Of a stretch of 64,000 nucleotides of DNA, positions 3,553 through 47,826 are shown piece after piece (the first letter of the stretch is position 1; each line of letters opens with the position of its first letter). This stretch comes from a virus (Duplodnaviria; Heunggongvirae; Uroviricota; Caudoviricetes), in IMG/VR virus record IMGVR_UViG_3300001199_000003, positions 58,537 to 122,536 of that record. One strand, 5' to 3'. A program made the position numbers and the translations under genes. The notes under the pieces were generated by a model that had not been told where the DNA came from, did no database searches, and was given only the letters and a program-made list of their open reading frames with translations.

Positions 3553-4323
3553 ATGTTCGGCATGAATAGTTCTAGCAAGGAACAAATCGCCGAAGTAGTC
3601 GAAAAAATGTTCGACTCAATTGCGCTCCAGTTCATCGGTGATATTCCAAAACTCAAAGACAAGAAAATGCTCGTTATTAGCTCTAAGCGAAACTATGGCC
3701 TTAGCCATTTGTTCGTTCAGGCTATGCAAAATAAAACTCCTAACGCTCTTGAGCAAGACGTTCTTAAATCTCTCTTAGAGAGCGCTTACGGCTACATTGA
3801 ATCCCTTAAAAATAGAACCAAATCAAATGTTACAGAAAGACTTGATGGAATCGTGCGTGAAGCCAAATTAGGTGGAGCAGATGCTAACCCTGAAGCAATC
3901 CGTGATGTTTTGGCCGAAGAACTTGGGAAAGCTAGAAGTCACCTAAGGGCCATCGCAGAGTCCGAAGCTACTAAGCTCAGAAATCTTGGTACAATGATGG
4001 ATATTTCTCGTGTTGCAGCAAACCTGGGCGATCATGACCCTACGGTATTCTTTGTTGTGGTTAAAGATGGAAGTACCTGTAAAGAGTGTATTCGACTTCA
4101 TTTAATGCCAGATCAGATGACCCCTAGACTGTGGAAATTCTCAGAGCTTAAGCAGGGATACCATAAGCGTTCAGACAATAACCCCTCTGCTTTTGGCTTA
4201 CACCCTCACTGTCGATGTACGCTAACCTATCTATCATCTGGTTTCGGTTTCAACAAGCAAGGCCTTGTTTCTTATCAAAGTGAAGACTACGACGCTTACT
4301 CACGTCAAAGAAAAGCTAGCTAA
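3553..4323 (+). CDS. head morphogenesis protein, Mu gpF / SPP1 gp7-like
   Basis: C-terminal GLHPHCRCT resembles the conserved HPNCRC motif of the Phage_Mu_F family. Located downstream of the portal-like gene. Confidence 0.5.
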   Translation: MFGMNSSSKEQIAEVVEKMFDSIALQFIGDIPKLKDKKMLVISSKRNYGLSHLFVQAMQNKTPNALEQDVLKSLLESAYGYIESLKNRTKSNVTERLDGIVREAKLGGADANPEAIRDVLAEELGKARSHLRAIAESEATKLRNLGTMMDISRVAANLGDHDPTVFFVVVKDGSTCKECIRLHLMPDQMTPRLWKFSELKQGYHKRSDNNPSAFGLHPHCRCTLTYLSSGFGFNKQGLVSYQSEDYDAYSRQRKAS

Positions 4324-4335
4324 AAATTCTAATAT

Positions 4336-4344
4336 CTGATATAT
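4336..4344 (+). promoter_or_regulatory. CTGATATAT extended -10-like motif; same spacing to the ATG at 4353
   Basis: Variant motif 8 nt upstream of the ATG at 4353. Confidence 0.3.
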
Positions 4345-4349
4345 TCAGG

Positions 4350-5876
4350 TTGATGCAGTTTGAAATAATTTCACCCACTAAAGCCTATGTTGTTGACGCA
4401 ACACCCCTAGAAATTGAGTCTTTGACTAAATCGCTGAGTTACGTCAATACAGCGTTTAAGCACCAAGCAAAAAGACATTATGAAAACAAGTGGCTTAGAA
4501 ATAAGAATAAAATTGCCTGGGAAAAGAAGCTTGAAGAGCTTAAGTCTAGGATTAATAACTGCCTAGTGTTTACGGACGACAGCGGAAAACGCTTCATTCG
4601 TCCAGGTTCCATTCCTTATCTGGAAATCCCAGATAGCCAAATCAAAAATCTCATAGTTTACCCAAAACCTAAAAAAGTGCCATGGGCTAAGCCTTTACCG
4701 TTCGATCTTTACGATTACCAAGACATGTCAGTCGAAAAACTGATAGAAATCAAGCATGGTAGCGTAGAATTATGTACCGGTGCTGGTAAATCTGCCATTA
4801 TTTTGCAAATTTGCAGAGAAACTGGCTTTAAAACGTGCGTTATCGCACCTTCTCAATCAATTTTCAATGAATTGTTAGAAAAATTTGAACATCATCTTGG
4901 TAAAGATAAAGTTGGAGCCCTAGGAGACGGTAAGCGCCGTCTTGGGAAACGATTTACGATCTGTATTGGCGATTCCATTGCGAATCTTAAGCCTGGTTCT
5001 GCCGAATATGAAGAATTTGCTAAAATGGACATGATGATCGTTGATGAATCCCATACGTGGGGAGCTGATACTCTAGAAGCTATATGTCATGGCGTTCTTC
5101 AAGATGTTCCTTACCGCCTGTTCATGTCAGGTACGCAAACGCGTGGTGACGGCGCAGAGAGACTACTACAAAGTATTATAGGTAAGACAGTCCACACACT
5201 TACAACTAAAGAGGCTATCGCAGGTGGCTACATCTGTGACCATGATTTTACTATTGTGGATATTGAATCTTCTAATCCAAACATCCAATCTGGCGATATT
5301 CTTGAGATGAAGCGTATCCATTTCTTGCGTAATAAAAACGTAGCCGCCTTTATTGCTAAATTGGCCAACGCTTCTGCCATGGCTTCAAATCACCAGACAC
5401 TTGTTTTGGTCGAAGAGCTATCTCAGATTGCTATGCTAATTCCGTTACTTAAAGTACCTTACGCCTATGCTCATTCCGAATCATCTAAAATGAAGCTTGC
5501 AGAGCTAGAAGCGTCAAGCGGTGTTTTATTGGAAAAAGTAGATAGGGCTGATTCGGTTGAAAAATTCAATAAATCTGAAGCCAAAGTATTGATCGGGACT
5601 TCATGTATAGCGACTGGTACTAATATCTTTCCTACTCATAACACTTGTAACTGGGTTGGTGGATCTTCTGAGATCAAAACTAAGCAAGGAGCCGTGGGGC
5701 GTAGCGTCAGAAAAGATGGAGCTAACCCATGGCGTGATAAGTGTGCTCCTAAGCCTAAGTCTAAGATTTTCGACTTCAATATTTATGATCAATTCCCACT
5801 CAAAAAGATGCTCGAAGAGCGTATTCTGTGCTACCGTGATTCCGGTACGGAAATCAAGCGTATCAAGCTGAAATAG
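4350..5876 (+). CDS. superfamily-2 DNA/RNA helicase
   Basis: Walker A CTGAGKSAI, DExH box MIVDESHTW and a later motif VI-like segment. Confidence 0.7.
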   Translation: MMQFEIISPTKAYVVDATPLEIESLTKSLSYVNTAFKHQAKRHYENKWLRNKNKIAWEKKLEELKSRINNCLVFTDDSGKRFIRPGSIPYLEIPDSQIKNLIVYPKPKKVPWAKPLPFDLYDYQDMSVEKLIEIKHGSVELCTGAGKSAIILQICRETGFKTCVIAPSQSIFNELLEKFEHHLGKDKVGALGDGKRRLGKRFTICIGDSIANLKPGSAEYEEFAKMDMMIVDESHTWGADTLEAICHGVLQDVPYRLFMSGTQTRGDGAERLLQSIIGKTVHTLTTKEAIAGGYICDHDFTIVDIESSNPNIQSGDILEMKRIHFLRNKNVAAFIAKLANASAMASNHQTLVLVEELSQIAMLIPLLKVPYAYAHSESSKMKLAELEASSGVLLEKVDRADSVEKFNKSEAKVLIGTSCIATGTNIFPTHNTCNWVGGSSEIKTKQGAVGRSVRKDGANPWRDKCAPKPKSKIFDFNIYDQFPLKKMLEERILCYRDSGTEIKRIKLK

Positions 5877-9503: not shown

Positions 9504-10475
9504 ATGAAAAACGCACTTAAATTTACACTGAGCTTGATGCTCGTTGCCTTTATGGTAGCGGTTCCTGCTCAAGCAGGGGCGATTAAAAAGATCGTTCTTA
9601 CTTCAGACAATACACTCAGTCTTAATGATGCTGTTACTGGCGCTTCAGTTGCTGAAGTTATCACTAAAGCTAAAGAACTGGACAGTAGCTTTGGTGTTTA
9701 CGCCACTATTACCGGCAAGAAAGATATCTATTTTTATCTTCGCACTCCAGGTGGATCAATTCAATCCGGCCTTGAGATGTTTGAAGCTCTTAATGGCCTT
9801 GATCGTCCAGTTCACACTATTACTAGCTTTGCAGCTTCTATGGGTTTCCAGACGGTTCAAAACCTTGGAAAACGCTATATTGTTAAAAGCGGTGTTTTGA
9901 TGTCCCACAGAGCGTCAGGTGGATTTGAAGGATCATTTGGTGGACAAAAACCGAGCCCAATGGACTCTCAAAAGAACTTCTGGGAACAACGTCTTCACGA
10001 AATGGATATGAAAACCGTAGAGCGCACTAAAGGTAAGCAAACTCTAGCTTCTTACCAAGCTCAATACGCTCCTGATATGTGGTTAACCGGTACTCAAGCT
10101 GTTGAGCAAGGATATGCTGACGAAGTTGTTCAAGTTCAGTGCGATTCATCTTTGGCCGGAGTGACTACTAAATCTGTGAATTTCATGGGTTTAATCAATA
10201 TCAACTACGACCTTGATAATTGTCCTTTAAATTCTACTCCAATGAATATCCGTATTTCTCGTATCGCTACCAATAAAGGTGAAATGGACTTTAATAAGTT
10301 TCAAGCTGCTGGCGGCGGATACGGTGTTGACTGTCTAATCGCTTCTGGTACTGATAAAACTAAGGTTTGTGCTACTAACACTTCCCTTAATGCTGAAAGA
10401 ATATATGGTCTTAAAAATGAATTCCGTAATTACTATATGGATATTAAAGGCCAAGTAAAGAACTTCAGATATTAA
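9504..10475 (+). CDS. secreted ClpP-class (S14/S49-like) serine protease
   Basis: N-terminal signal peptide MKNALKFTLSLMLVAFMVAVPAQAG. ClpP-type active-site block ITSFAASMGF. Four cysteines in the C-terminal part. Confidence 0.45.
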   Translation: MKNALKFTLSLMLVAFMVAVPAQAGAIKKIVLTSDNTLSLNDAVTGASVAEVITKAKELDSSFGVYATITGKKDIYFYLRTPGGSIQSGLEMFEALNGLDRPVHTITSFAASMGFQTVQNLGKRYIVKSGVLMSHRASGGFEGSFGGQKPSPMDSQKNFWEQRLHEMDMKTVERTKGKQTLASYQAQYAPDMWLTGTQAVEQGYADEVVQVQCDSSLAGVTTKSVNFMGLININYDLDNCPLNSTPMNIRISRIATNKGEMDFNKFQAAGGGYGVDCLIASGTDKTKVCATNTSLNAERIYGLKNEFRNYYMDIKGQVKNFRY

Positions 10476-27907: not shown

Positions 27908-28714
27908 GTGTATTCTAATAGTATGAAAAAACTACTTATCATTCTAATGATCGCTTTACTTGGATGTACTGAAAAGCCTAAAGCTCCTACGCAGGAGACC
28001 AAAGTAGAATCTGCTCAAATGCGTAAGAAGAAAAAGCGCTACATTTGTGGCGAGAAAACTGTCGTAGTAGCCGTGATTGATACTGGGTTTAGTTTTTCCG
28101 ATCTCACTAAAAATGTAAGACTTTGCAATGAAGGTCACAGAGATTTTAGCGGAATGAACGAATTCGATAATCGTTACACTAAAACTCCAGTTCCTACCGA
28201 TAGCGATAAAGATTTTCATGGAACAAATATAGCTGGCTTGATCCAAGACTTTGGCTCTTATGCTAATTTCTGTATGGTAATTATCAAATATTATGATCCA
28301 AAAGCCACAGGTCAACAGAGCTTAGAAGCCAGTATCGCCGCAGTTAAATATGCAACTGACATTAAAGCGGATTACATTAACTATTCTAGTGGTGGCCAAT
28401 TATCTAATGATGCTGAGAATGTAGTCATTAAAGCGTATTTAGATCAAGGTGGAAAATTTATAGCTGCTGCTGGTAACGAAGCAGAGAATACAGATATTGC
28501 TCCTTTCTATCCTGCTATGTCAGATCCACGCATCGTATCTGTTGGTAGCACGGACATGTACGGCAAAAGACTTCCAACCTCTAATTACGGACCTAAAGTT
28601 ACTACGTGGGAAATTGGAGATAAGATGAAAGCTTTTGGAATCGTTAGAACTGGAACCAGTCAAGCAGCTGCTATTGTAACAGGTAAAACACTTAGAAAAG
28701 AATGTATCAAATAA
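27908..28714 (+). CDS. subtilisin-like (S8) serine protease lipoprotein
   Basis: Lipobox LLGC. Asp VAVIDTG, His DFHGTNIAG and Ser GTSQAAAIVTG catalytic blocks. Confidence 0.55.
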   Translation: MYSNSMKKLLIILMIALLGCTEKPKAPTQETKVESAQMRKKKKRYICGEKTVVVAVIDTGFSFSDLTKNVRLCNEGHRDFSGMNEFDNRYTKTPVPTDSDKDFHGTNIAGLIQDFGSYANFCMVIIKYYDPKATGQQSLEASIAAVKYATDIKADYINYSSGGQLSNDAENVVIKAYLDQGGKFIAAAGNEAENTDIAPFYPAMSDPRIVSVGSTDMYGKRLPTSNYGPKVTTWEIGDKMKAFGIVRTGTSQAAAIVTGKTLRKECIK

Positions 28715-31297: not shown

Positions 31298-32722
31298 ATG
31301 GATTTAATGACACTTGGTATTGTGGCAGGCGGAATTCTAGGCCTAGCCGGTATCGCTTTCCTAGTAGCAGTCAGTTTACGTCGAGTCGTTCCTACGAACG
31401 AAGTTCACATTGTTCAGTCTGCAGCAAGCACTACGTCTTACGGTAAGGGAACTGGTCACGGTAACTCTTACTTTGAATGGCCTACTTCTATCCCTTTCCT
31501 GGGCGTAAGTAAGACAGTCATGCCTACATCTAACTTCGACGTAGATCTTAAAGCGTATGAAGCTTACGATGACGGTCGTCTCCCTTTCCTGGTAGATATT
31601 AAAGCATTCTTTAGAATTGCTGACTCAAACGAAGCTGCTCAAAAAGTTGCTAACTTTGATGAACTTCTTAATCAGTTAACTGCCATTGTTCAAGGTGCTG
31701 TACGTACTGTTTTGGCTTCAAACTCGATTGAAGAAATTATGCAAGGCCGCTCTAAGTTCGGTACTGAGTTCACTAAAGAAGTTCACGAACAGCTTAAAAA
31801 CTGGGGTGTTGAAACTGTTAAGAATATCGAACTTATGGATATTCGCGATGCTAAGGATTCTAAAGTAATCCACAACATCATGGAAAAGAAAAAGTCTCAA
31901 ATTGAATCTGAATCTCGCGTAGCTGTAGCGAATAACCACAGAGATGCTGAGCTTGCAGAAATCGCGGCTCGTCAGCAAACTGATCTTAAAGCTCAAGAAG
32001 CTCAAGAAGCAGTTGGTCTTCGTACTAACGAACAAGAAAAAGCCGTAGAGATTGCTAAACAAGAGAAAATTCAAGCTCTTAAAGAGCAAGAAAAGACGAC
32101 TAAAGAAAAAGAAATGGCCGTTATTAAGATTGGTAAGCTTCGTGAAGCAGAGATTGCTAAAGAAGTTGCCCTTGTTAAGTCTGAACAGGATAAACAAGTT
32201 GCTTTGATTCGCTCTGAGCAAGAGAAGCAAGTTGCGGTTATCGCTGCAGAAGGTGAAAAACAAAGAATTGAGCTTGAGTCTTCTGGTCAGTTGAAAGCTA
32301 CCCAAAACCAAGCTGAAGGTATCGCCGCTACTGGTAAAGCAAATGCTGAAGCTGAACAAGCTATCCTTGCTGCTCCAGTTAATGCCCAGATTCTTTTGGC
32401 CAAAGAGATCGGTGGAAACGAGTCGTACCAGAAGTACCTCATCACTATCGAGCAAGTTAAAGCTAACGCTCAAGTCGGTATGGAACAAGCTAAGGCTCTC
32501 CAAGCTGCTGACGTTAAAATTATCTCAAACTCTGGTAAGTCAACTGACGGCCTTAAGAGCGTAATGGATGTCTTCTCTTCCCAAGGTGGAGTAGAAATCG
32601 GTGCGATGCTTGAAGGTCTAGCTGCTACTGAGAAAGGTCAAGAGTTGATTGGTAAGTTTTTAGGTGGAAAGAAAACAGCAGCTGCTGATAAAAGCCCACT
32701 AAGTGACTCAGCTAAATCGTAA
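31298..32722 (+). CDS. SPFH/band-7 (flotillin-like) membrane protein
   Basis: N-terminal transmembrane helix, SPFH-like core, then a long Glu/Ala/Lys coiled-coil repeat region as in flotillins. Confidence 0.6.
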   Translation: MDLMTLGIVAGGILGLAGIAFLVAVSLRRVVPTNEVHIVQSAASTTSYGKGTGHGNSYFEWPTSIPFLGVSKTVMPTSNFDVDLKAYEAYDDGRLPFLVDIKAFFRIADSNEAAQKVANFDELLNQLTAIVQGAVRTVLASNSIEEIMQGRSKFGTEFTKEVHEQLKNWGVETVKNIELMDIRDAKDSKVIHNIMEKKKSQIESESRVAVANNHRDAELAEIAARQQTDLKAQEAQEAVGLRTNEQEKAVEIAKQEKIQALKEQEKTTKEKEMAVIKIGKLREAEIAKEVALVKSEQDKQVALIRSEQEKQVAVIAAEGEKQRIELESSGQLKATQNQAEGIAATGKANAEAEQAILAAPVNAQILLAKEIGGNESYQKYLITIEQVKANAQVGMEQAKALQAADVKIISNSGKSTDGLKSVMDVFSSQGGVEIGAMLEGLAATEKGQELIGKFLGGKKTAAADKSPLSDSAKS

Positions 32723-39016: not shown

Positions 39017-39739
39017 ATGACTACTGAATCGAACCATAAATTAGATAAAAAGATTAAAGCGAAGTCCGACGACCACGTCTGGCACGTTCACGAATATGAC
39101 GTAGATTTGCAATCTAACCACATATACTTGATGGGTATGGAAAGCTACGCTGCGGGACATGAAGAGATGATCGGTGAGCCAGGAGTTGAATACTCCATGG
39201 CCAATAGATTCATCCGAAACTTGAACATCTGTATGCGTGCTAATCCAGATAAGCCTATTGTGATCCACATGAAAACCTGTGGCGGTCTGTGGGAAGAAGG
39301 CATGGCGATTTATGACGCGATTAAGTCGTGTCCAATGCCTGTAACTATCTTAAACTACACACATGCGCGTTCTATGTCGAGTCTGATCTTCCAAGCCGCT
39401 AATAAGCGTGTTATGATGCCCCATAGTTACTTCATGTACCACGATGGCACTTTGGCTGTAGATGGTACGACTAAGACGGTGATTTCTAATATTGAGTTCA
39501 CACAGAAGGTCAGCCAGGCAATGCTTGACATCTATGTTGATTCGATGAAGCTTTCTGGCAAGTACAAAAATCGTTCTCGTAAATGGCTCTACGCTTACCT
39601 GCGTGAGCAAATGGACAAGAAAGAAGACGTATTCGTAGTAGCTAAAGAAGCTGTGGAACTAGGATTTGCTGACTCAGTGTTTGATTACAACTGGGCTAAA
39701 CTGACCGATTACACTCAAGAAGAATTAGCTAGAGGATAA
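39017..39739 (+). CDS. ClpP-like (S14) protease
   Basis: IVIHMKTCGGLWEEGMAIYDAIK...ARSMSSLIF...MYHDG parallels ClpP INSPGG...AIYD...AASMGS...IHQP. Confidence 0.55.
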   Translation: MTTESNHKLDKKIKAKSDDHVWHVHEYDVDLQSNHIYLMGMESYAAGHEEMIGEPGVEYSMANRFIRNLNICMRANPDKPIVIHMKTCGGLWEEGMAIYDAIKSCPMPVTILNYTHARSMSSLIFQAANKRVMMPHSYFMYHDGTLAVDGTTKTVISNIEFTQKVSQAMLDIYVDSMKLSGKYKNRSRKWLYAYLREQMDKKEDVFVVAKEAVELGFADSVFDYNWAKLTDYTQEELARG

Positions 39740-41733: not shown

Positions 41734-41936
41734 GTAAAGAAATTATTGTCCCGATTTGCTGGTTAAATGGTGGAAATATGATTGATCGGGATACCCTCCC
41801 TTCAGATCACCCAGAATCCATGTACGGTTACATTAAGTATTCATTGAAGCTAAGACCGGAAGATTACGGTATCTATACCGATAAACAGATCGCAGAGAAT
41901 AAAATCAAACAGAGTGAAGAACTCGCAAAACACTAG
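41730..41936 (+). CDS. hypothetical protein
   Basis: Track ORF. Confidence 0.4.
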   Translation: MSKEIIVPICWLNGGNMIDRDTLPSDHPESMYGYIKYSLKLRPEDYGIYTDKQIAENKIKQSEELAKH

Positions 41937-42939
41937 CATGGAGACGGACATGAGTGAACTAGATGATGCAGCAGAGTGGGCCTCAGCGGCAGAAAACTTT
42001 GATGGCGATAAAAACGAAGGTAAGCAAAGTCTAAGAGGCAGCGCTCCAGACTACGATGATGACGATGACACGACTAAGAATCCTGGACAGCCGAATCAAT
42101 ACGCTCTATATGGAGCTGGCTACATGGCTACAACACCTACTATCAAATCGTTAGTAGCTGGCTGTTACGATATCCAAGCCGATAACCGTGGCGTATTCGT
42201 GGTTCCGGCATTACCTCCATCTGGGATTCTATTAGAGTTACCGGAAATGAGATCCGATGAAGTAATCCGCGTAGTGGATAACTTTTGGAACTCTGAAGCA
42301 GACTATAAAGATGGAAACGATTTCGTAGTAGGTGGCGCACAGTTCAAAGCTGGTGTGATGATCTACGGTCCTCCAGGATCAGGTAAGTCGTGTACGATTA
42401 AGATCGTATCTAAGAAACTAGTTGAAAGAGGTGGAACAGTATTCTTCAGTTCTGGCCACCCATCTAACACAATGCGTTGGTTGGAAGATTTCGCTAGAGT
42501 TGAGCCAAACAGAAAGTGCATTGTTATTTTAGAAGATATTGATAGTTTGATCCATAACTATGGTGAATCGAACTACCTAGAGATGTTAGATTCGGCCAAA
42601 ACGATTAATAATGTCTTGTTTATTGCCACGACGAACTATCCTGAGCACTTAGATCCTCGTATCTATAACCGTCCAGGTCGTTTTAGCCATGTAATTAAGA
42701 TCGGTCTTCCAGTTCCTGCGACTCGCGAAGCTTACCTCAAAGCGATCCTCAAGAATCACCAGGATGTTGAAGAGATCGTTAAAGAGTCTGAAGGCTTCAC
42801 AATCGACCACTTGACCGCGTTGGTTAACGGTGTGTATCGTGAGAAGAAAGACCTCAAAACCGAGCTTAAACGCCTCCGTACACTGTTTAAAGTACCTAAA
42901 GGTAGCGATAAGCCTGCTCTGGGGCTCAGCAATGGGTAA
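41914..42939 (+). CDS. AAA+ ATPase
   Basis: Walker A GVMIYGPPGSGKSCT and Walker B VIVILEDIDSL. Confidence 0.65.
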   Translation: MKNSQNTSMETDMSELDDAAEWASAAENFDGDKNEGKQSLRGSAPDYDDDDDTTKNPGQPNQYALYGAGYMATTPTIKSLVAGCYDIQADNRGVFVVPALPPSGILLELPEMRSDEVIRVVDNFWNSEADYKDGNDFVVGGAQFKAGVMIYGPPGSGKSCTIKIVSKKLVERGGTVFFSSGHPSNTMRWLEDFARVEPNRKCIVILEDIDSLIHNYGESNYLEMLDSAKTINNVLFIATTNYPEHLDPRIYNRPGRFSHVIKIGLPVPATREAYLKAILKNHQDVEEIVKESEGFTIDHLTALVNGVYREKKDLKTELKRLRTLFKVPKGSDKPALGLSNG

Positions 42940-43802: not shown

Positions 43803-44021
43803 ATGAAAAGTGTTAAAATCAAGGACTTAATTGAGAATCACTCCGTTATCGGAAATGAAGAGCTTTACGAATTAAGAAAGAGCGAGAAACAGTTTTCAGA
43901 TGTTTGTAGTATTATCAATTATTCACTAGATCTATCGGATGCTGAAAAGCTTCGTAAGATTGAATATATTATCTACAATATCGGATACAGAAAAGACGTA
44001 CTTAGCAAGATTGAAAAATGA
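43803..44021 (+). CDS. hypothetical protein
   Basis: Track ORF with an AGGAA RBS. Preceded by a structured leader. Confidence 0.35.
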   Translation: MKSVKIKDLIENHSVIGNEELYELRKSEKQFSDVCSIINYSLDLSDAEKLRKIEYIIYNIGYRKDVLSKIEK

Positions 44022-44142
44022 AGAAAAGAACGAAAAAAGCTATAAAACAGATAACTAATCCTAGACTTAAATAGTCAAAGCGTGATATGGTTAGGATAGC
44101 TAAATTTGTAGAGAGATTTAAAGAGATAATTAAATAACTTAT

Positions 44143-44568
44143 GGGGGCGCGTAGTTTCGACAGGGGAACGGAGAACGAAAGGTGCAAGACGTGGAAGGGA
44201 TGAAGGCCACGTAAAAATCATTCCAATTTTATACGGCAACGTAGAAGAAAAAATGGCTGCTTAATTCCCTCACGGGAATGGCGCTTGAGGTGTTTGTCTA
44301 CCGATAACAACAAAGGCTACCATGGCTGTATCTCAGAGCCAACCCTAAGGGAGAATCTGATTAGTTTGTTCATTCTTAAAATGAACTGGTGGACGGTAGT
44401 CTTGGTGAGTAACCTTGGCAATCCCACGAGGCTGATCGACACTCGTTAAACGACGATTACGCCGCAAGGCAAGAGTCACTCAACTCTCTAATCATGGGTC
44501 AATCTTGTGCATGACCTTAGTTTGATGATCTTTTGGACGCGGGGGGCGGCTCCCCGCCGCCTCCACCA
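44143..44568 (+). ncRNA. ssrA: tmRNA (SsrA-like transfer-messenger RNA)
   Basis: The 5' GGGGGCG pairs with the 3' CGCCUCC as a 7-bp acceptor stem with a G3:U70 wobble. T-arm GCGGGG/CCCCGC and a 3' CCACCA end, followed by a T6 run. The 5' UUCGACAGGGG segment resembles the tmRNA D-loop analogue. Internal frame GGC AAC GUA GAA GAA AAA AUG GCU GCU UAA at 44235-44264 encodes a tag ending in Ala-Ala-stop. Confidence 0.6.
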
Positions 44569-44574
44569 TTTTTT

Positions 44575-45229
44575 ACGAGTGCGCGCAGTCGCAGAAACGA
44601 GACACGTAAACACTGCGCTGACATCCAGCAAAGACTGGAGGGCCAGAGCCTCGGTAGCCCTAAACTATCCGAAAGCGTTAGTAGGTGCTTCCAGGGTCGG
44701 CTGAAGCTTAATGGCGCTACCGTCGTCGCCTACTTTTATTAAATTCAGATGAGCCGAAAGGCTTAAGCCGGTTTGGGCGAAAAAGGCTGAAACCCATTTA
44801 TGGTGGCTATGGTGTAACGGGTCGTAAGACAGGCACGGCGGTTTGTGGAACCGTTGGTGAGGTTTCAAATACCTCTAGTCACCCCATTTTTATGGCGAGA
44901 AATGATCAGATGATCAGGGGCGGTTCCTAATGGTATTTAGGGCCTCGAAAGTTCGGAGCGTAGTGTAGGTTCGAGTCCTACCCAACTTTCTCTAGTTCGC
45001 AGCTAGGCTCGCCACCTTTTAAATTTAAGTAAGCCGCAAGGCTTTGAGCCAGGGGAAGCTAAGGCTAAATCTTCCTAATCTTCATAGGGTGAGGTCTACG
45101 TGCCTGAGCGAAAGCTCGAATCCGATGGCTTGCTGTCTGGTCATGCTTTTAAAACGTAGAGAACCAGGCTAGTGTGGAAGTGTTGAAATAGGCAATAACG
45201 CAATAAAAATCACATTTCACAAATCCCAA
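44575..45229 (+). other. structured non-coding RNA region with tRNA-like modules
   Basis: No credible ORF. Repeated hairpins AGCC-GAAA-GGCT (44752-44763), AGCC-GCAA-GGCT (45032-45043) and GAGC-GAAA-GCTC (45106-45117). T-arm-like GAGGU-UUCAAAU-ACCUC (44859-44875) with CCA at 44884-44886. Second T-arm GUAGG-UUCGAGU-CCUAC (44965-44981). Confidence 0.35.
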
Positions 45230-45253
45230 CCCGCCTGAAAAGGCGGGTTTTTT
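45230..45253 (+). terminator. rho-independent terminator
   Basis: Stem CCCGCC, loop UGAAAA, stem GGCGGG, followed by a T6 run. Confidence 0.6.
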
Positions 45254-45302
45254 ATTTGACATCGAAATGAAGCTGAGATACTATTCCGCGTAAGAGGTTT
45301 TA

Positions 45303-45755
45303 ATGAAAATGATGTTTGCCGAAATATTCTTTCTACTTACGATTATTACTATAATCCACGAACTTGGTCACTTTCTTATGGCCAAATACTTCAAATTCAA
45401 TATAAAAGAATTCTCCATCGGTAGTGGATTTACGATCTTTGAGCAGAAAATAAAGAACACAATGCTTGTCTTAAAACTAGTCCTACCTTTGGGTGGACAT
45501 ATTCGTGTTGATTTTGAAGTCAATAAGTTCAAACAGATGGACGACAGAAAACTCTTAGGTATCATCTGCGTCTCATTAGCTGGACCATTCATGAATATTA
45601 TCGTGGCTTTACTTACTTTCCAATATAACTTTGCATTCGCCGCTATGAGTTTTCTTACAGGAATTACAAACCTTCTACCGTTCGATATGACCGATGGAGA
45701 TATAGCCTTGGGCGGCATTAGGGAATACCTTAAAAGACGTAAGGAGAAAGCATGA
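45303..45755 (+). CDS. minimal site-2 protease (M50 family intramembrane metalloprotease)
   Basis: First TM helix carries IIHELGHFLMAKYF (HExxH), as in RseP TVHEFGHFWVARR. FSIGSGF...LPLGGHIRV matches FSIGFG...IPLGGYVKM. C-terminal NLLPFDMTDGD matches the NLLPxxxLDGG motif. No PDZ domains. Confidence 0.55.
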   Translation: MKMMFAEIFFLLTIITIIHELGHFLMAKYFKFNIKEFSIGSGFTIFEQKIKNTMLVLKLVLPLGGHIRVDFEVNKFKQMDDRKLLGIICVSLAGPFMNIIVALLTFQYNFAFAAMSFLTGITNLLPFDMTDGDIALGGIREYLKRRKEKA

Positions 45756-47307: not shown

Positions 47308-47826
47308 ATGAAGTACGAATTAAACCTAGTTTCAGTAGCTCGCCAATTTGCCGAAGAAGCTCATGGTGATCAAAAATACGACAATATGCCTTATACTAAC
47401 GCGCACTTGGACAAAGTTGTTCATACTCTGACGTTCTTCACAAACGATCCAGTTGTTTTGGCTATGGGATATCTTCACGATGTTTTAGAAGATACTTCTG
47501 TGACCTACGATGAATTAGCTAAGACTTTTGGTCACGTTATAGCCAATGGAGTCCTAGCTTTAACGGACCAGAAAGGTAACTCTCGTTTTGAGAGACAATT
47601 CCTTACCTACGTGAGACTTCGCGACAATCGTGAAGCTCTCCTGGTTAAGCTCTGCGACCGTATCACGAATATGCGCGCATCATTTGGCACAAAACACGCT
47701 GCCGCTTACGTTAAAGAATATGAGCGTTTTAAGGGCTCACTCTACGTAGAAGACGATCTATTTGAAGGTGCTTGGATTATCTTAGATTCACTATATAATG
47801 GCTTACTTGATGAGAGTAAAAAATGA
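47308..47826 (+). CDS. HD-domain phosphohydrolase, SpoT/Mesh1-like (p)ppGpp hydrolase family
   Basis: AMGYLHDVLEDTSVTYDEL matches the HD motif of the RelA/SpoT hydrolase domain (LLHDVVEDT). 172 aa, single domain. Confidence 0.5.
   Translation: MKYELNLVSVARQFAEEAHGDQKYDNMPYTNAHLDKVVHTLTFFTNDPVVLAMGYLHDVLEDTSVTYDELAKTFGHVIANGVLALTDQKGNSRFERQFLTYVRLRDNREALLVKLCDRITNMRASFGTKHAAAYVKEYERFKGSLYVEDDLFEGAWIILDSLYNGLLDESKK

Follow-up and report, generated by a model that had tools for sequence, protein, structure and literature searches.

Phage tRNA clusters are usually interpreted as helpers of codon usage and, more recently, also as spares against tRNA-cleaving defences. Large structured RNAs of the GOLLD and ROOL classes often adjoin phage tRNA genes, and phage T4 carries RNA C and RNA D, small structured RNAs that lie beside its tRNA genes, contain no open reading frame (ORF) and have no known role. 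In T4-type phages, modular shuffling is mediated by PeSL, which are mobile regulatory cassettes (PMC2839356, PMC4122927). Here we describe a region, positions 44575–45229, that follows a transfer-messenger RNA (tmRNA) gene in an uncultivated phage (171,229-bp contig; IMG/VR record IMGVR_UViG_3300001199_000003). The window, that is, the whole stretch of DNA that was analyzed, comprises 64,000 nt, and coordinates refer to it unless a related contig is named. By analogy, T4 RNA C and RNA D would be the nearest precedent; the region likewise contains small structured RNAs beside a phage tRNA gene, without an ORF or a known role. In contrast to the T4 cluster, this one is led by a tmRNA, has a single decoding tRNA, and its extra RNAs are tRNA look-alikes with added arms; the RNA region also lacks a sequence match to any GenBank phage.

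We consider it probable that the region is a string of separate small RNA elements of a stable-RNA operon, arranged in a shuffled island that includes one working tRNA-His. From 5′ to 3′, the elements are a cassette named H1, a cassette named G, a unique spacer, repeat unit 1, tRNA-His, a 123-nt tRNA-like RNA, repeat unit 2 and a tail resembling a small RNA (sRNA) (Table 1). If co-transcribed, they would make up the distal two thirds of a ~1.1-kb operon running from the tmRNA to a terminator (45228–45249). Comparison with related loci is best read as showing a hypervariable 'RNA island', in which each relative combines interchangeable cassettes anew. This cassette organization is new, as are the conserved D-loop hairpin in a decodable tRNA and the look-alike with two T-arms.

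Table 1. Positions and structures of the RNA elements and of the signals that flank them (MFE, minimum free energy).
Feature	Position	Strand	Description
tmRNA gene (upstream context)	44143–44568	+	Rfam RF00023, 75.4 bits, model 1–374 (full length)
H1 cassette	44583–44618	+	7-bp stem GCGCAGU/ACUGCGC around a conserved 22-nt loop (..GCAGAAAC..ACGUAAAC)
G cassette	44619–44639	+	UGACA, then hairpin UCCAG-CAAAGA-CUGGA
Unique spacer, sRNA-like	44640–44737	+	Long imperfect hairpin, then GGCG..CGCC hairpin; 3′ end CCUAC-UUUU
Repeat unit 1	44739–44800	+	UUAAAUU linker; GNRA hairpin UGAGCC-GAAA-GGCUUA (44750–44765); AGCC (44766–44769); second hairpin GGUUU..AAACC (44770–44794)
tRNA-His(GUG)	44802–44886	+	Rfam RF00005, 49.3 bits (gathering score 29), model positions 1–71; G-1 44802; acceptor 44803–44809/44876–44882; anticodon GUG 44845–44847; T-arm 44859–44875; C73 44883; encoded CCA 44884–44886
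D-loop hairpin	44821–44830	+	GUC-GUAA-GAC, after G18G19
123-nt tRNA-like RNA	44894–45016	+	MFE and centroid fold
Repeat unit 2	45019–45085	+	UUAAAUU linker; GNRA hairpin AAGCC-GCAA-GGCUU (45031–45044); AGCC (45047–45050); second hairpin GGGAAG..CUUCCU (45053–45076)
Unique 3′ segment, sRNA-like	45086–45227	+	GNRA hairpin UGAGC-GAAA-GCUCG (45105–45118); AU-rich tail before the terminator
Intrinsic terminator closing the island	45228–45255	+	9-bp stem with 6 G-C pairs, GAAA loop, U run
Sigma-70-type promoter of the M50 peptidase gene	45256–45284	+	TTGACA-17-TACTAT

The preliminary description of this region, made from the sequence, had reported tRNA-like modules for which no normal D and anticodon arms could be built. 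For the first module this was incorrect. Rfam matched two RNA genes in the whole window, the tmRNA and a tRNA (44803–44883), both with scores above the gathering score of their family, and Infernal aligned a full cloverleaf to the latter, with the acceptor stem GUGGCUA/UAGUCAC, U8, the D-stem GUGU/GCAC, the anticodon arm GCGGU-UUGUGGA-ACCGU and the T-arm GAGGU-UUCAAAU-ACCUC; G18G19 was kept. The acceptor stem and encoded CCA that had been noted earlier were both found, together with C73. The G at 44802, C73 and the GUG anticodon place both bacterial histidine identity marks (G-1:C73 and GUG) in the predicted molecule. Compared with bacterial tRNA-His in RF00005, the gene has the same cloverleaf, anticodon, G-1:C73 pair, U8, G18G19, UUCAAAU T-loop and encoded CCA, but differs in a long D-loop bearing a GNRA-capped 3-bp hairpin and in a U53-A61 pair that replaces the usual G53-C61. 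ARAGORN detected neither the tmRNA nor the tRNA-His in the window. Its relaxed mode, which had been suggested as a check, and its intron mode gave no clean tRNA; their calls, a tRNA-Ile with a 55-nt intron and a permuted tmRNA, are both spurious.

The D-loop hairpin, three pairs with a GUAA loop, is the sole abnormality of the tRNA-His besides U53-A61. The D-loop reads AACGG-GUCGUAAGAC-AG and is 17 nt long, compared with ~7–11 nt ordinarily; Infernal treated 12 nt of it as an insertion, and without the hairpin an ordinary 7-nt D-loop is left. An orthologue was found in one relative only (L008, 2842–2929; related contigs carry L numbers throughout). All 22 stem pairs, including G-1:C73, hold in both genes and 9 of them are altered on both sides, whereas shifted registers pair at 36–50%. 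The D-loop of the orthologue is 20 nt long and has the hairpin GAC-GAAA-GUC at the same site, where the middle pair is changed from U-A to A-U. This comparison of two sequences indicates that the D-loop hairpin is a real, conserved peculiarity of the tRNA-His. A review of non-canonical tRNAs does not include a D-loop hairpin insertion among its variants (PMC7609411). With regard to a possible splicing-out of the hairpin, neither a bulge-helix-bulge motif nor a match to a group I or other intron model was seen. There was no RNA-repair or splicing enzyme among 40 window proteins.

The second module, the 123-nt RNA, begins seven bases past the CCA of the tRNA-His, and its 3′ end reads CUCGCC-A-CC-UUUU. 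A five-way junction is predicted by the MFE structure and by the centroid structure alike (frequency 0.17, z-score −1.46); it is closed by an acceptor-like stem of 6 bp (GGCGAG/CUCGCC) that is followed by A and CC. Its first arm is UGAUC-AGAU-GAUCA (5 bp, 4-nt loop) and its second is a two-step arm with a UGGUAU cap (GGGGC..CCUAA-UGGUAU-UUAGG-GCCUC). The third arm is long (GAAAGUU(C)GG..CCAACUUUC) and carries at its tip a canonical T-arm, GUAGG-UUCGAGU-CCUAC (44965–44981), which is thus misplaced into the position of a variable arm. The fourth arm, UCUAG-UUCGCAG-CUAGG (44991–45007, 5 bp), adjoins the 3′ strand, where a T-arm normally lies. The RNA has neither a GG-bearing D-loop nor a 7-nt anticodon loop, RF00005 did not match it at E ≤ 10, and ARAGORN found nothing in its default and low-threshold modes; a gene called in intron mode spans the two modules and is spurious. 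On this modelled fold, the segment is a tRNA look-alike and not a tRNA. The earlier suggestion of highly atypical tRNAs held for 44802–44886, a true tRNA-His with an unusual D-loop, and failed for 44894–45016, which is tRNA-like yet failed each tRNA test tried; the Rfam scan gave a clean tRNA call for the first module and none for the second. Processing decoys, another identity that had been suggested, are a possibility.

Known tRNA mimics with a replaced anticodon arm, namely the tRNA-like domain of tmRNA and the bacterial YrlA/Y RNAs (PMC4201824), share with the 123-nt RNA an acceptor-like stem, T-arm motifs and non-decoding arms. The 123-nt RNA differs from these mimics in its two T-arm-like hairpins and in the lack of a G18G19 D-loop, and no match to YrlA or another such family was obtained from Rfam. 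None of the scanned window proteins came from a Ro/Rsr gene. Over 18 nt (44965–44982), the canonical T-arm and the base that follows it match the T-arm of a tRNA-like gene in relatives perfectly, an identity that hints at an origin of the 123-nt RNA by recombination.

Relatives on contigs from other samples were found through homologues of the M50 peptidase (65–72% identity) and of an upstream 72-aa gene. They represent nine distinct syntenic versions, and the order AAA ATPase, small genes, tmRNA, RNA island and M50 gene is kept in all. The islands themselves measure 0.5–1.4 kb and differ from one relative to the next in both content and order. Within the 650 nt of the window island, only 44570–44621 and the tRNA-His have counterparts; the first ~50 nt are 80–90% identical over 29–126 nt in L008, L009/L010 and L014. 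The island is thus a mosaic at the level of these sequences.

H1 and G, which take up the first ~65 nt past the tmRNA, are recurring parts shared across the phage family. Copies of H1 occur in six relatives (L003, L008, L009, L011, L012 and L014) at varied island positions, where either the tmRNA or a tRNA-like gene precedes them. In the H1 stem, three pairs are altered on both sides, 93.7% of the alignment cells pair, and none of 500 shuffles reached the observed score. The G motif, GAC(A) and then a hairpin whose loop is (G/C)AAAG(U)A, is present in all nine relatives with a mapped island. Its stems vary yet are always complementary (gcug/cagc, gccg/cggc, uacug/cagua, gucgg/ccgac, gcgg/cugc and uccag/cugga), and when the 5′ flank is required G is confined to the RNA island in relatives. 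Bare G-hairpin matches elsewhere lie in coding sequence, lack the conserved 5′ flank and appear chance-like. G usually stands 0–60 nt from the next RNA gene; in L014 it is immediately upstream of the M50 gene.

H1 and G resemble PeSL in that they are short conserved stem-loops recurring among the variable cassettes of a hyperplastic region. The likeness is one of role and not of sequence, and H1 and G could mediate modular shuffling in a similar manner. However, PeSL are promoter-plus-terminator motifs beside protein genes, whereas H1 and G flank RNA genes and carry neither signal; no promoter-like or terminator-like site overlaps 44583–44639. The covariation of the H1 and G stems indicates a role as RNA, unlike PeSL.

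Relatives also carry other expanded tRNA-like genes, indicating that the oddities of the window belong to a family habit. A 124-nt tRNA-like RNA (GGGACGG...CGUCCCG) occurs in six relatives (L003 4823–4946 and five other loci) and is absent from the window. It has invariant internal loops, covarying stems in a long 'anticodon' arm and in a long variable arm, and an Rfam tRNA score of 27.4, just below threshold. In a 147-nt tRNA body (L009 ~450–603, L011 3226–3372), ~80 conserved nt replace the anticodon loop and the acceptor, D-arm, T-arm and CCA are normal; the L011 copy lies outside the island, between protein genes. ARAGORN called a 'tRNA-Leu(UAG)' gene at L003 4740–4814, L012 2479–2552, L014 1416–1493 and L016 3599–3672. 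A conserved leader of ~95 nt always precedes this gene, its anticodon loop differs in each version (ACUAGAU, ACAUAAU, AUUUUU or a UUCG-capped helix), and all four distinct versions have the alanine identity pair G3.U70 together with G73. From these sequences, it looks like a tRNA mimic chargeable with alanine rather than a leucine decoder. Another tRNA-like gene has its own TTGACA-type promoter and an anticodon loop of 8 or 9 nt (AAUAAAAC / GAUAAAAAA; L008 2973–3049, L012 3171–3248), and the L008 copy has G-1 and C73 too. Helix-capped anticodon arms are found among the tRNA-like genes of the relatives as well.

The two repeat units that had been noticed earlier are present (44739–44764 and 45019–45044, 81% identical over 26 nt). 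In both, the U run of the preceding RNA leads directly into an AU-rich linker, after which come a GNRA hairpin of 5–6 bp, AGCC and a second hairpin, whose position is the same and whose stem sequence differs between the copies. Unit 1 stops 1 nt short of the tRNA-His. The MFE z-score of unit 1 was −2.66 and the folding z-score of unit 2 was +0.30. A pattern derived from the units matched only these two sites in 64 kb, and none of 100 shuffles gave two matches, a test that is somewhat circular; a covariance model of the unit, run on the window and on 13 related loci, recovered these two copies and no other. We also considered an H-type pseudoknot in which AGCC/GGCU crosses GGUUU/AAACC or GGAAG/CUUCC. 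In unit 1 this requires 1 nt to span a 4-bp helix, which is sterically strained, so the nested two-hairpin fold is likelier; pairing of AGCC with the downstream GGCU is a possibility. Judged from their position, the units may be leader/trailer punctuation that combines an AU-rich endonuclease entry site with a protective hairpin.

The two unique segments have no homologue in any relative. The spacer (z-score −0.56) contains a terminator-like site (44712–44728) followed by a U run, and the 3′ segment (z-score −0.87) has a possible long-range stem, UCUACGU/ACGUAGA. The 3′ segment was also considered as a diverged copy of the tRNA-His, which was rejected: a GNRA hairpin lies ~18 nt from its start, as it does in the tRNA-His, yet no 3′ acceptor strand or T-arm match follows.

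The features listed in the preliminary description are real and commoner than chance, and its interpretation is partly supported. As it had stated, no plausible ORF covers the region, which is overlapped only by ORFs of 42–69 aa with TTG or GTG starts, two of them starting within the tmRNA. The three GNRA hairpins with stems of at least 4 bp were all found (44750–44765, 45031–45044 and 45105–45118), and with those at 45170–45185 and in the terminator there are five, the maximum for any 655-nt segment of the 64 kb (mean 0.67). Both perfect T-arm hairpins (44859–44875 and 44965–44981; 5-bp stems, UUCRANN loops) were likewise confirmed; perfect hairpins of this type number five in the 64 kb on both strands, and two of these are in the region. 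The terminator that had been said to close the region is present as well, its stem-loop followed by a U run and graded strong. With the separate promoter beyond it, this terminator bounds the island, which, like the raised G+C content over the island, speaks for the operon reading. Of the two conditions that had been named as refuting, each applies in half: one module is a clean tRNA, and the region as a whole is not conserved.

The sequence comparisons show the identity of the tRNA-His, the conservation of its hairpin, the covariation in H1, the mosaic island and the lack of ORFs and of other known RNA families. Co-transcription and the processing sites are inferred, and so is whatever the repeat units, the 123-nt RNA and the unique segments do; the following scheme draws on general knowledge of bacterial tRNA maturation. 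Host RNA polymerase would produce the array transcript by starting at the tmRNA promoter, by reading through the weak, terminator-like hairpin at the tmRNA 3′ end, or by both routes. RNase P would cut 5′ of G-1 (44802) and probably also 5′ of G44894. The linkers UUUUAUUAAAUU and UUUUAAAUUU (AU-rich; UUUUAAAUU) would act as RNase E-type entry sites that separate the products, and the stable GNRA hairpin after each linker would stop exonucleases. Host HisRS would charge the tRNA-His via G-1:C73 and the GUG anticodon, and CAY codons would be decoded. The D-loop hairpin would project from the elbow side and be either kept in the mature tRNA or removed, and the 123-nt RNA would be a non-decoding tRNA mimic that is processed and 3′-repaired (CCA) in the manner of a tRNA.

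Several observations weigh against the reading as an operon of separate small RNAs. The tmRNA ends in a terminator-like structure, and the stretch from there to the tRNA-His yielded no sigma-70 promoter, so that co-transcription is assumed. The tRNA-His departs from the usual G53-C61. The repeat units, the 123-nt RNA (over its whole length) and both unique segments have no homologue in GenBank phages, IMG/VR, GTDB genomes or the related contigs; the fold of the 123-nt RNA rests on a single sequence, as do those of the unique segments, and the structures of the units are derived from two paralogues. That no homologue exists there for most of the 650 nt is the weak point of the reading. Folding energy is a weak witness here: the z-score of the whole region was −2.95 and that of the opposite strand −3.23, and several sub-segments fold no better than shuffles.

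These points bear on the view that everything except the tRNA-His is non-functional debris, that is, remains of tRNA genes that decayed or were rearranged, together with scars of recombination, which build up because a hyperplastic region tolerates junk. The absence of the units, the 123-nt RNA and the two unique segments from every relative, the weak folding z-scores, and the 18-nt T-arm identity, which looks like a recombination product, are all consistent with debris, and so are the visible shuffling of the island and the homing endonuclease gene in the island of one relative. Nevertheless, G+C content is raised along the whole stretch (0.47–0.53 throughout the region versus 0.33–0.40 in adjoining genes), the 123-nt RNA closes neatly with a 6-bp stem, ACC and a U run directly past the trailer of the tRNA-His, both units keep their two-hairpin layout despite different second-stem sequences, and comparable odd tRNA-like genes of relatives are conserved with covariation. 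We regard debris as an unlikely explanation.

A role in counter-defence appears similarly doubtful. By analogy with known systems, the D-loop hairpin might let the tRNA-His evade a tRNA-targeting host nuclease or a modification-dependent sensor, and the 123-nt mimic might be a decoy or sponge for a tRNA-binding host factor. Phage tRNAs rescue infection from tRNA-cleaving defences, including PARIS (PMC11464382) and retron effectors (PMC11555353), and tRNA-His is among the tRNAs cleaved by colicin E5-type nucleases (PMC1635277). Both precedents speak for such a role, as do the conservation of the D-loop hairpin in two phages and the combination of a hypervariable anticodon loop with a constant body in the tRNA-like gene of the relatives. 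On the other hand, no defence or host context was seen at the locus, known escape variants alter the anticodon loop and not the D-loop, and the mimic has no homologue, hence no selection on it is demonstrable.

A broader reading, to which as a whole we give only a small chance, assigns the RNAs to a 'tRNA-scaffolded' family. Its members would be tRNA bodies whose signals for processing and aminoacylation (G-1:C73, G3.U70 and an encoded CCA) are retained, while extra hairpins or whole domains are added at the D-loop, the anticodon or the variable arm. The tRNA-His and the 123-nt RNA would then be members acting as nuclease-resistant tRNAs, tRNA decoys or carriers during infection, and H1, G and the leader units would be punctuation that lets genes swap between phages.

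The preliminary description had also raised a large structured RNA of the GOLLD/ROOL type; on this reading, the whole 650 nt would be a single RNA that encloses the tRNA. The region shares with GOLLD and ROOL its phage setting, the proximity of a tRNA gene and its many hairpins, including those of the GNRA type, and the z-score of the whole region would fit. However, the opposite strand folds equally well, and the region consists of separable units, split by U runs and single or missing in relatives, without block conservation. An Rfam 15 scan of 44000–45400 gave no match to GOLLD, ROOL or another large RNA, or to any ribozyme or riboswitch family, even at E ≤ 10, and no family besides tmRNA and tRNA at E < 0.05; the island content is shuffled among relatives, and the 11-nt tetraloop receptor was not seen on reading the sequence. 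Five relatives scanned at E ≤ 0.5 likewise contained no known self-cleaving ribozyme or riboswitch. A single large RNA is therefore very improbable. Weakest of all, with hardly any probability, is a cis-regulatory leader (riboswitch or attenuator) of the M50 peptidase gene, for the region does lie directly upstream on the same strand, but the strong terminator and then the gene's own consensus-like promoter intervene, indicating that the island is not its leader. Several relatives likewise have a TTGACA promoter-like motif downstream of their last RNA gene and upstream of M50.

Database searches were extended in several directions. A blastn search of 44100–45300 against 50,697 GenBank phage records, a collection that should hold T4 and its relatives, returned no match. 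No relative of the island turned up in these scans of IMG/VR: the AAA ATPase query retrieved two distant loci, neither with an RNA gene, and the tmRNA 3′ end retrieved one unrelated permuted tmRNA; the M50 protein, the two unit patterns and a tRNA-His pattern had no match there. Sixteen IMG/VR matches to the H1 loop were coding-sequence false positives. In JGI metagenomes, the tmRNA 3′ end matched 12 loci; each is an unrelated tmRNA, bacterial or from a phage, and the sequence that follows it shows no similarity to the island. Eight GTDB matches to the unit pattern were near the number estimated by chance and shared no context. The run SRR2043728 contains the phage contig. The Logan contig of a second sample carrying the phage is identical, and thus supplies no natural variants.

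Under the reading as an array of separate RNAs in a shuffled island, this locus and its relatives use the tRNA fold as a chassis. The D-loop of a decodable tRNA-His accommodates a hairpin, which is conserved, look-alikes that do not decode carry extra arms, and a variable anticodon loop is combined with a fixed acceptor identity pair. If these RNAs are made and stable, they would widen the known structural tolerance of tRNA, give natural examples of tRNA-scaffolded RNAs and provide a defined set of molecules for the old question of the 'extra' stable RNAs in phage tRNA clusters. They are also a warning for annotation, since the tmRNA, the tRNA-His and all look-alikes were missed by ARAGORN.

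Several further observations concern the islands of the relatives. In L003, an ORF for a LAGLIDADG homing endonuclease (AYLAGLIDGEG, 4200–4592) lies between the tmRNA and H1; the other relatives are without it. This ORF speaks for mobility in the island and is in line with the shuffled-island reading. Four relatives (L008 2435–2500, L006 4328–4390, L010 426–490 and L012 2720–2785) share a conserved module made up of GGCG-ACCUACUC-CGCC ... AUGUAGGGU and, after it, the hairpin UGCCAGU-CACAGAU-ACUGGCA. Its loop CCUAC can pair with a downstream GUAGG to form an H-type pseudoknot. The window hairpin GGCG-CUACCGUCGU-CGCC (44713–44730), with GUAGG upstream, loosely resembles this module. Upstream of the island in L021 (679–1095), a 138-aa protein has an RF-1 (peptidyl-tRNA hydrolase/ArfB-like) domain; judging by this domain, it would be a second ribosome-rescue function beside tmRNA.

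The phage identity of the source is supported by portal, helicase, SbcC-like and DnaE-type polymerase genes among the window proteins, and the closest polymerase is the DnaE of Myxococcus phage Mx1 (33% amino-acid identity). The RNA genes and the flanking genes are all on the + strand. The T-loop of the tmRNA, GGCGGCU, is non-canonical, and the same T-arm is seen in metagenomic tmRNAs that are unrelated to it, some of them encoded by circularly permuted two-piece genes (L015, L023 and L031). Around the tmRNA are genes for two ClpP-like proteases, an AAA ATPase, an M50 site-2-type peptidase and an S8 subtilase, as well as for an SPFH/Band 7 protein and an HD_4 (SpoT-like) domain protein (9504–10475, 39017–39739, 41914–42939, 45303–45755, 27908–28714, 31298–32722 and 47308–47826). 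The tag frame of the tmRNA (44235–44264) encodes GNVEEKMAA*. Such a set of proteins, together with a tag that ends in MAA, suggests that the phage carries a module for tagging and proteolysis.

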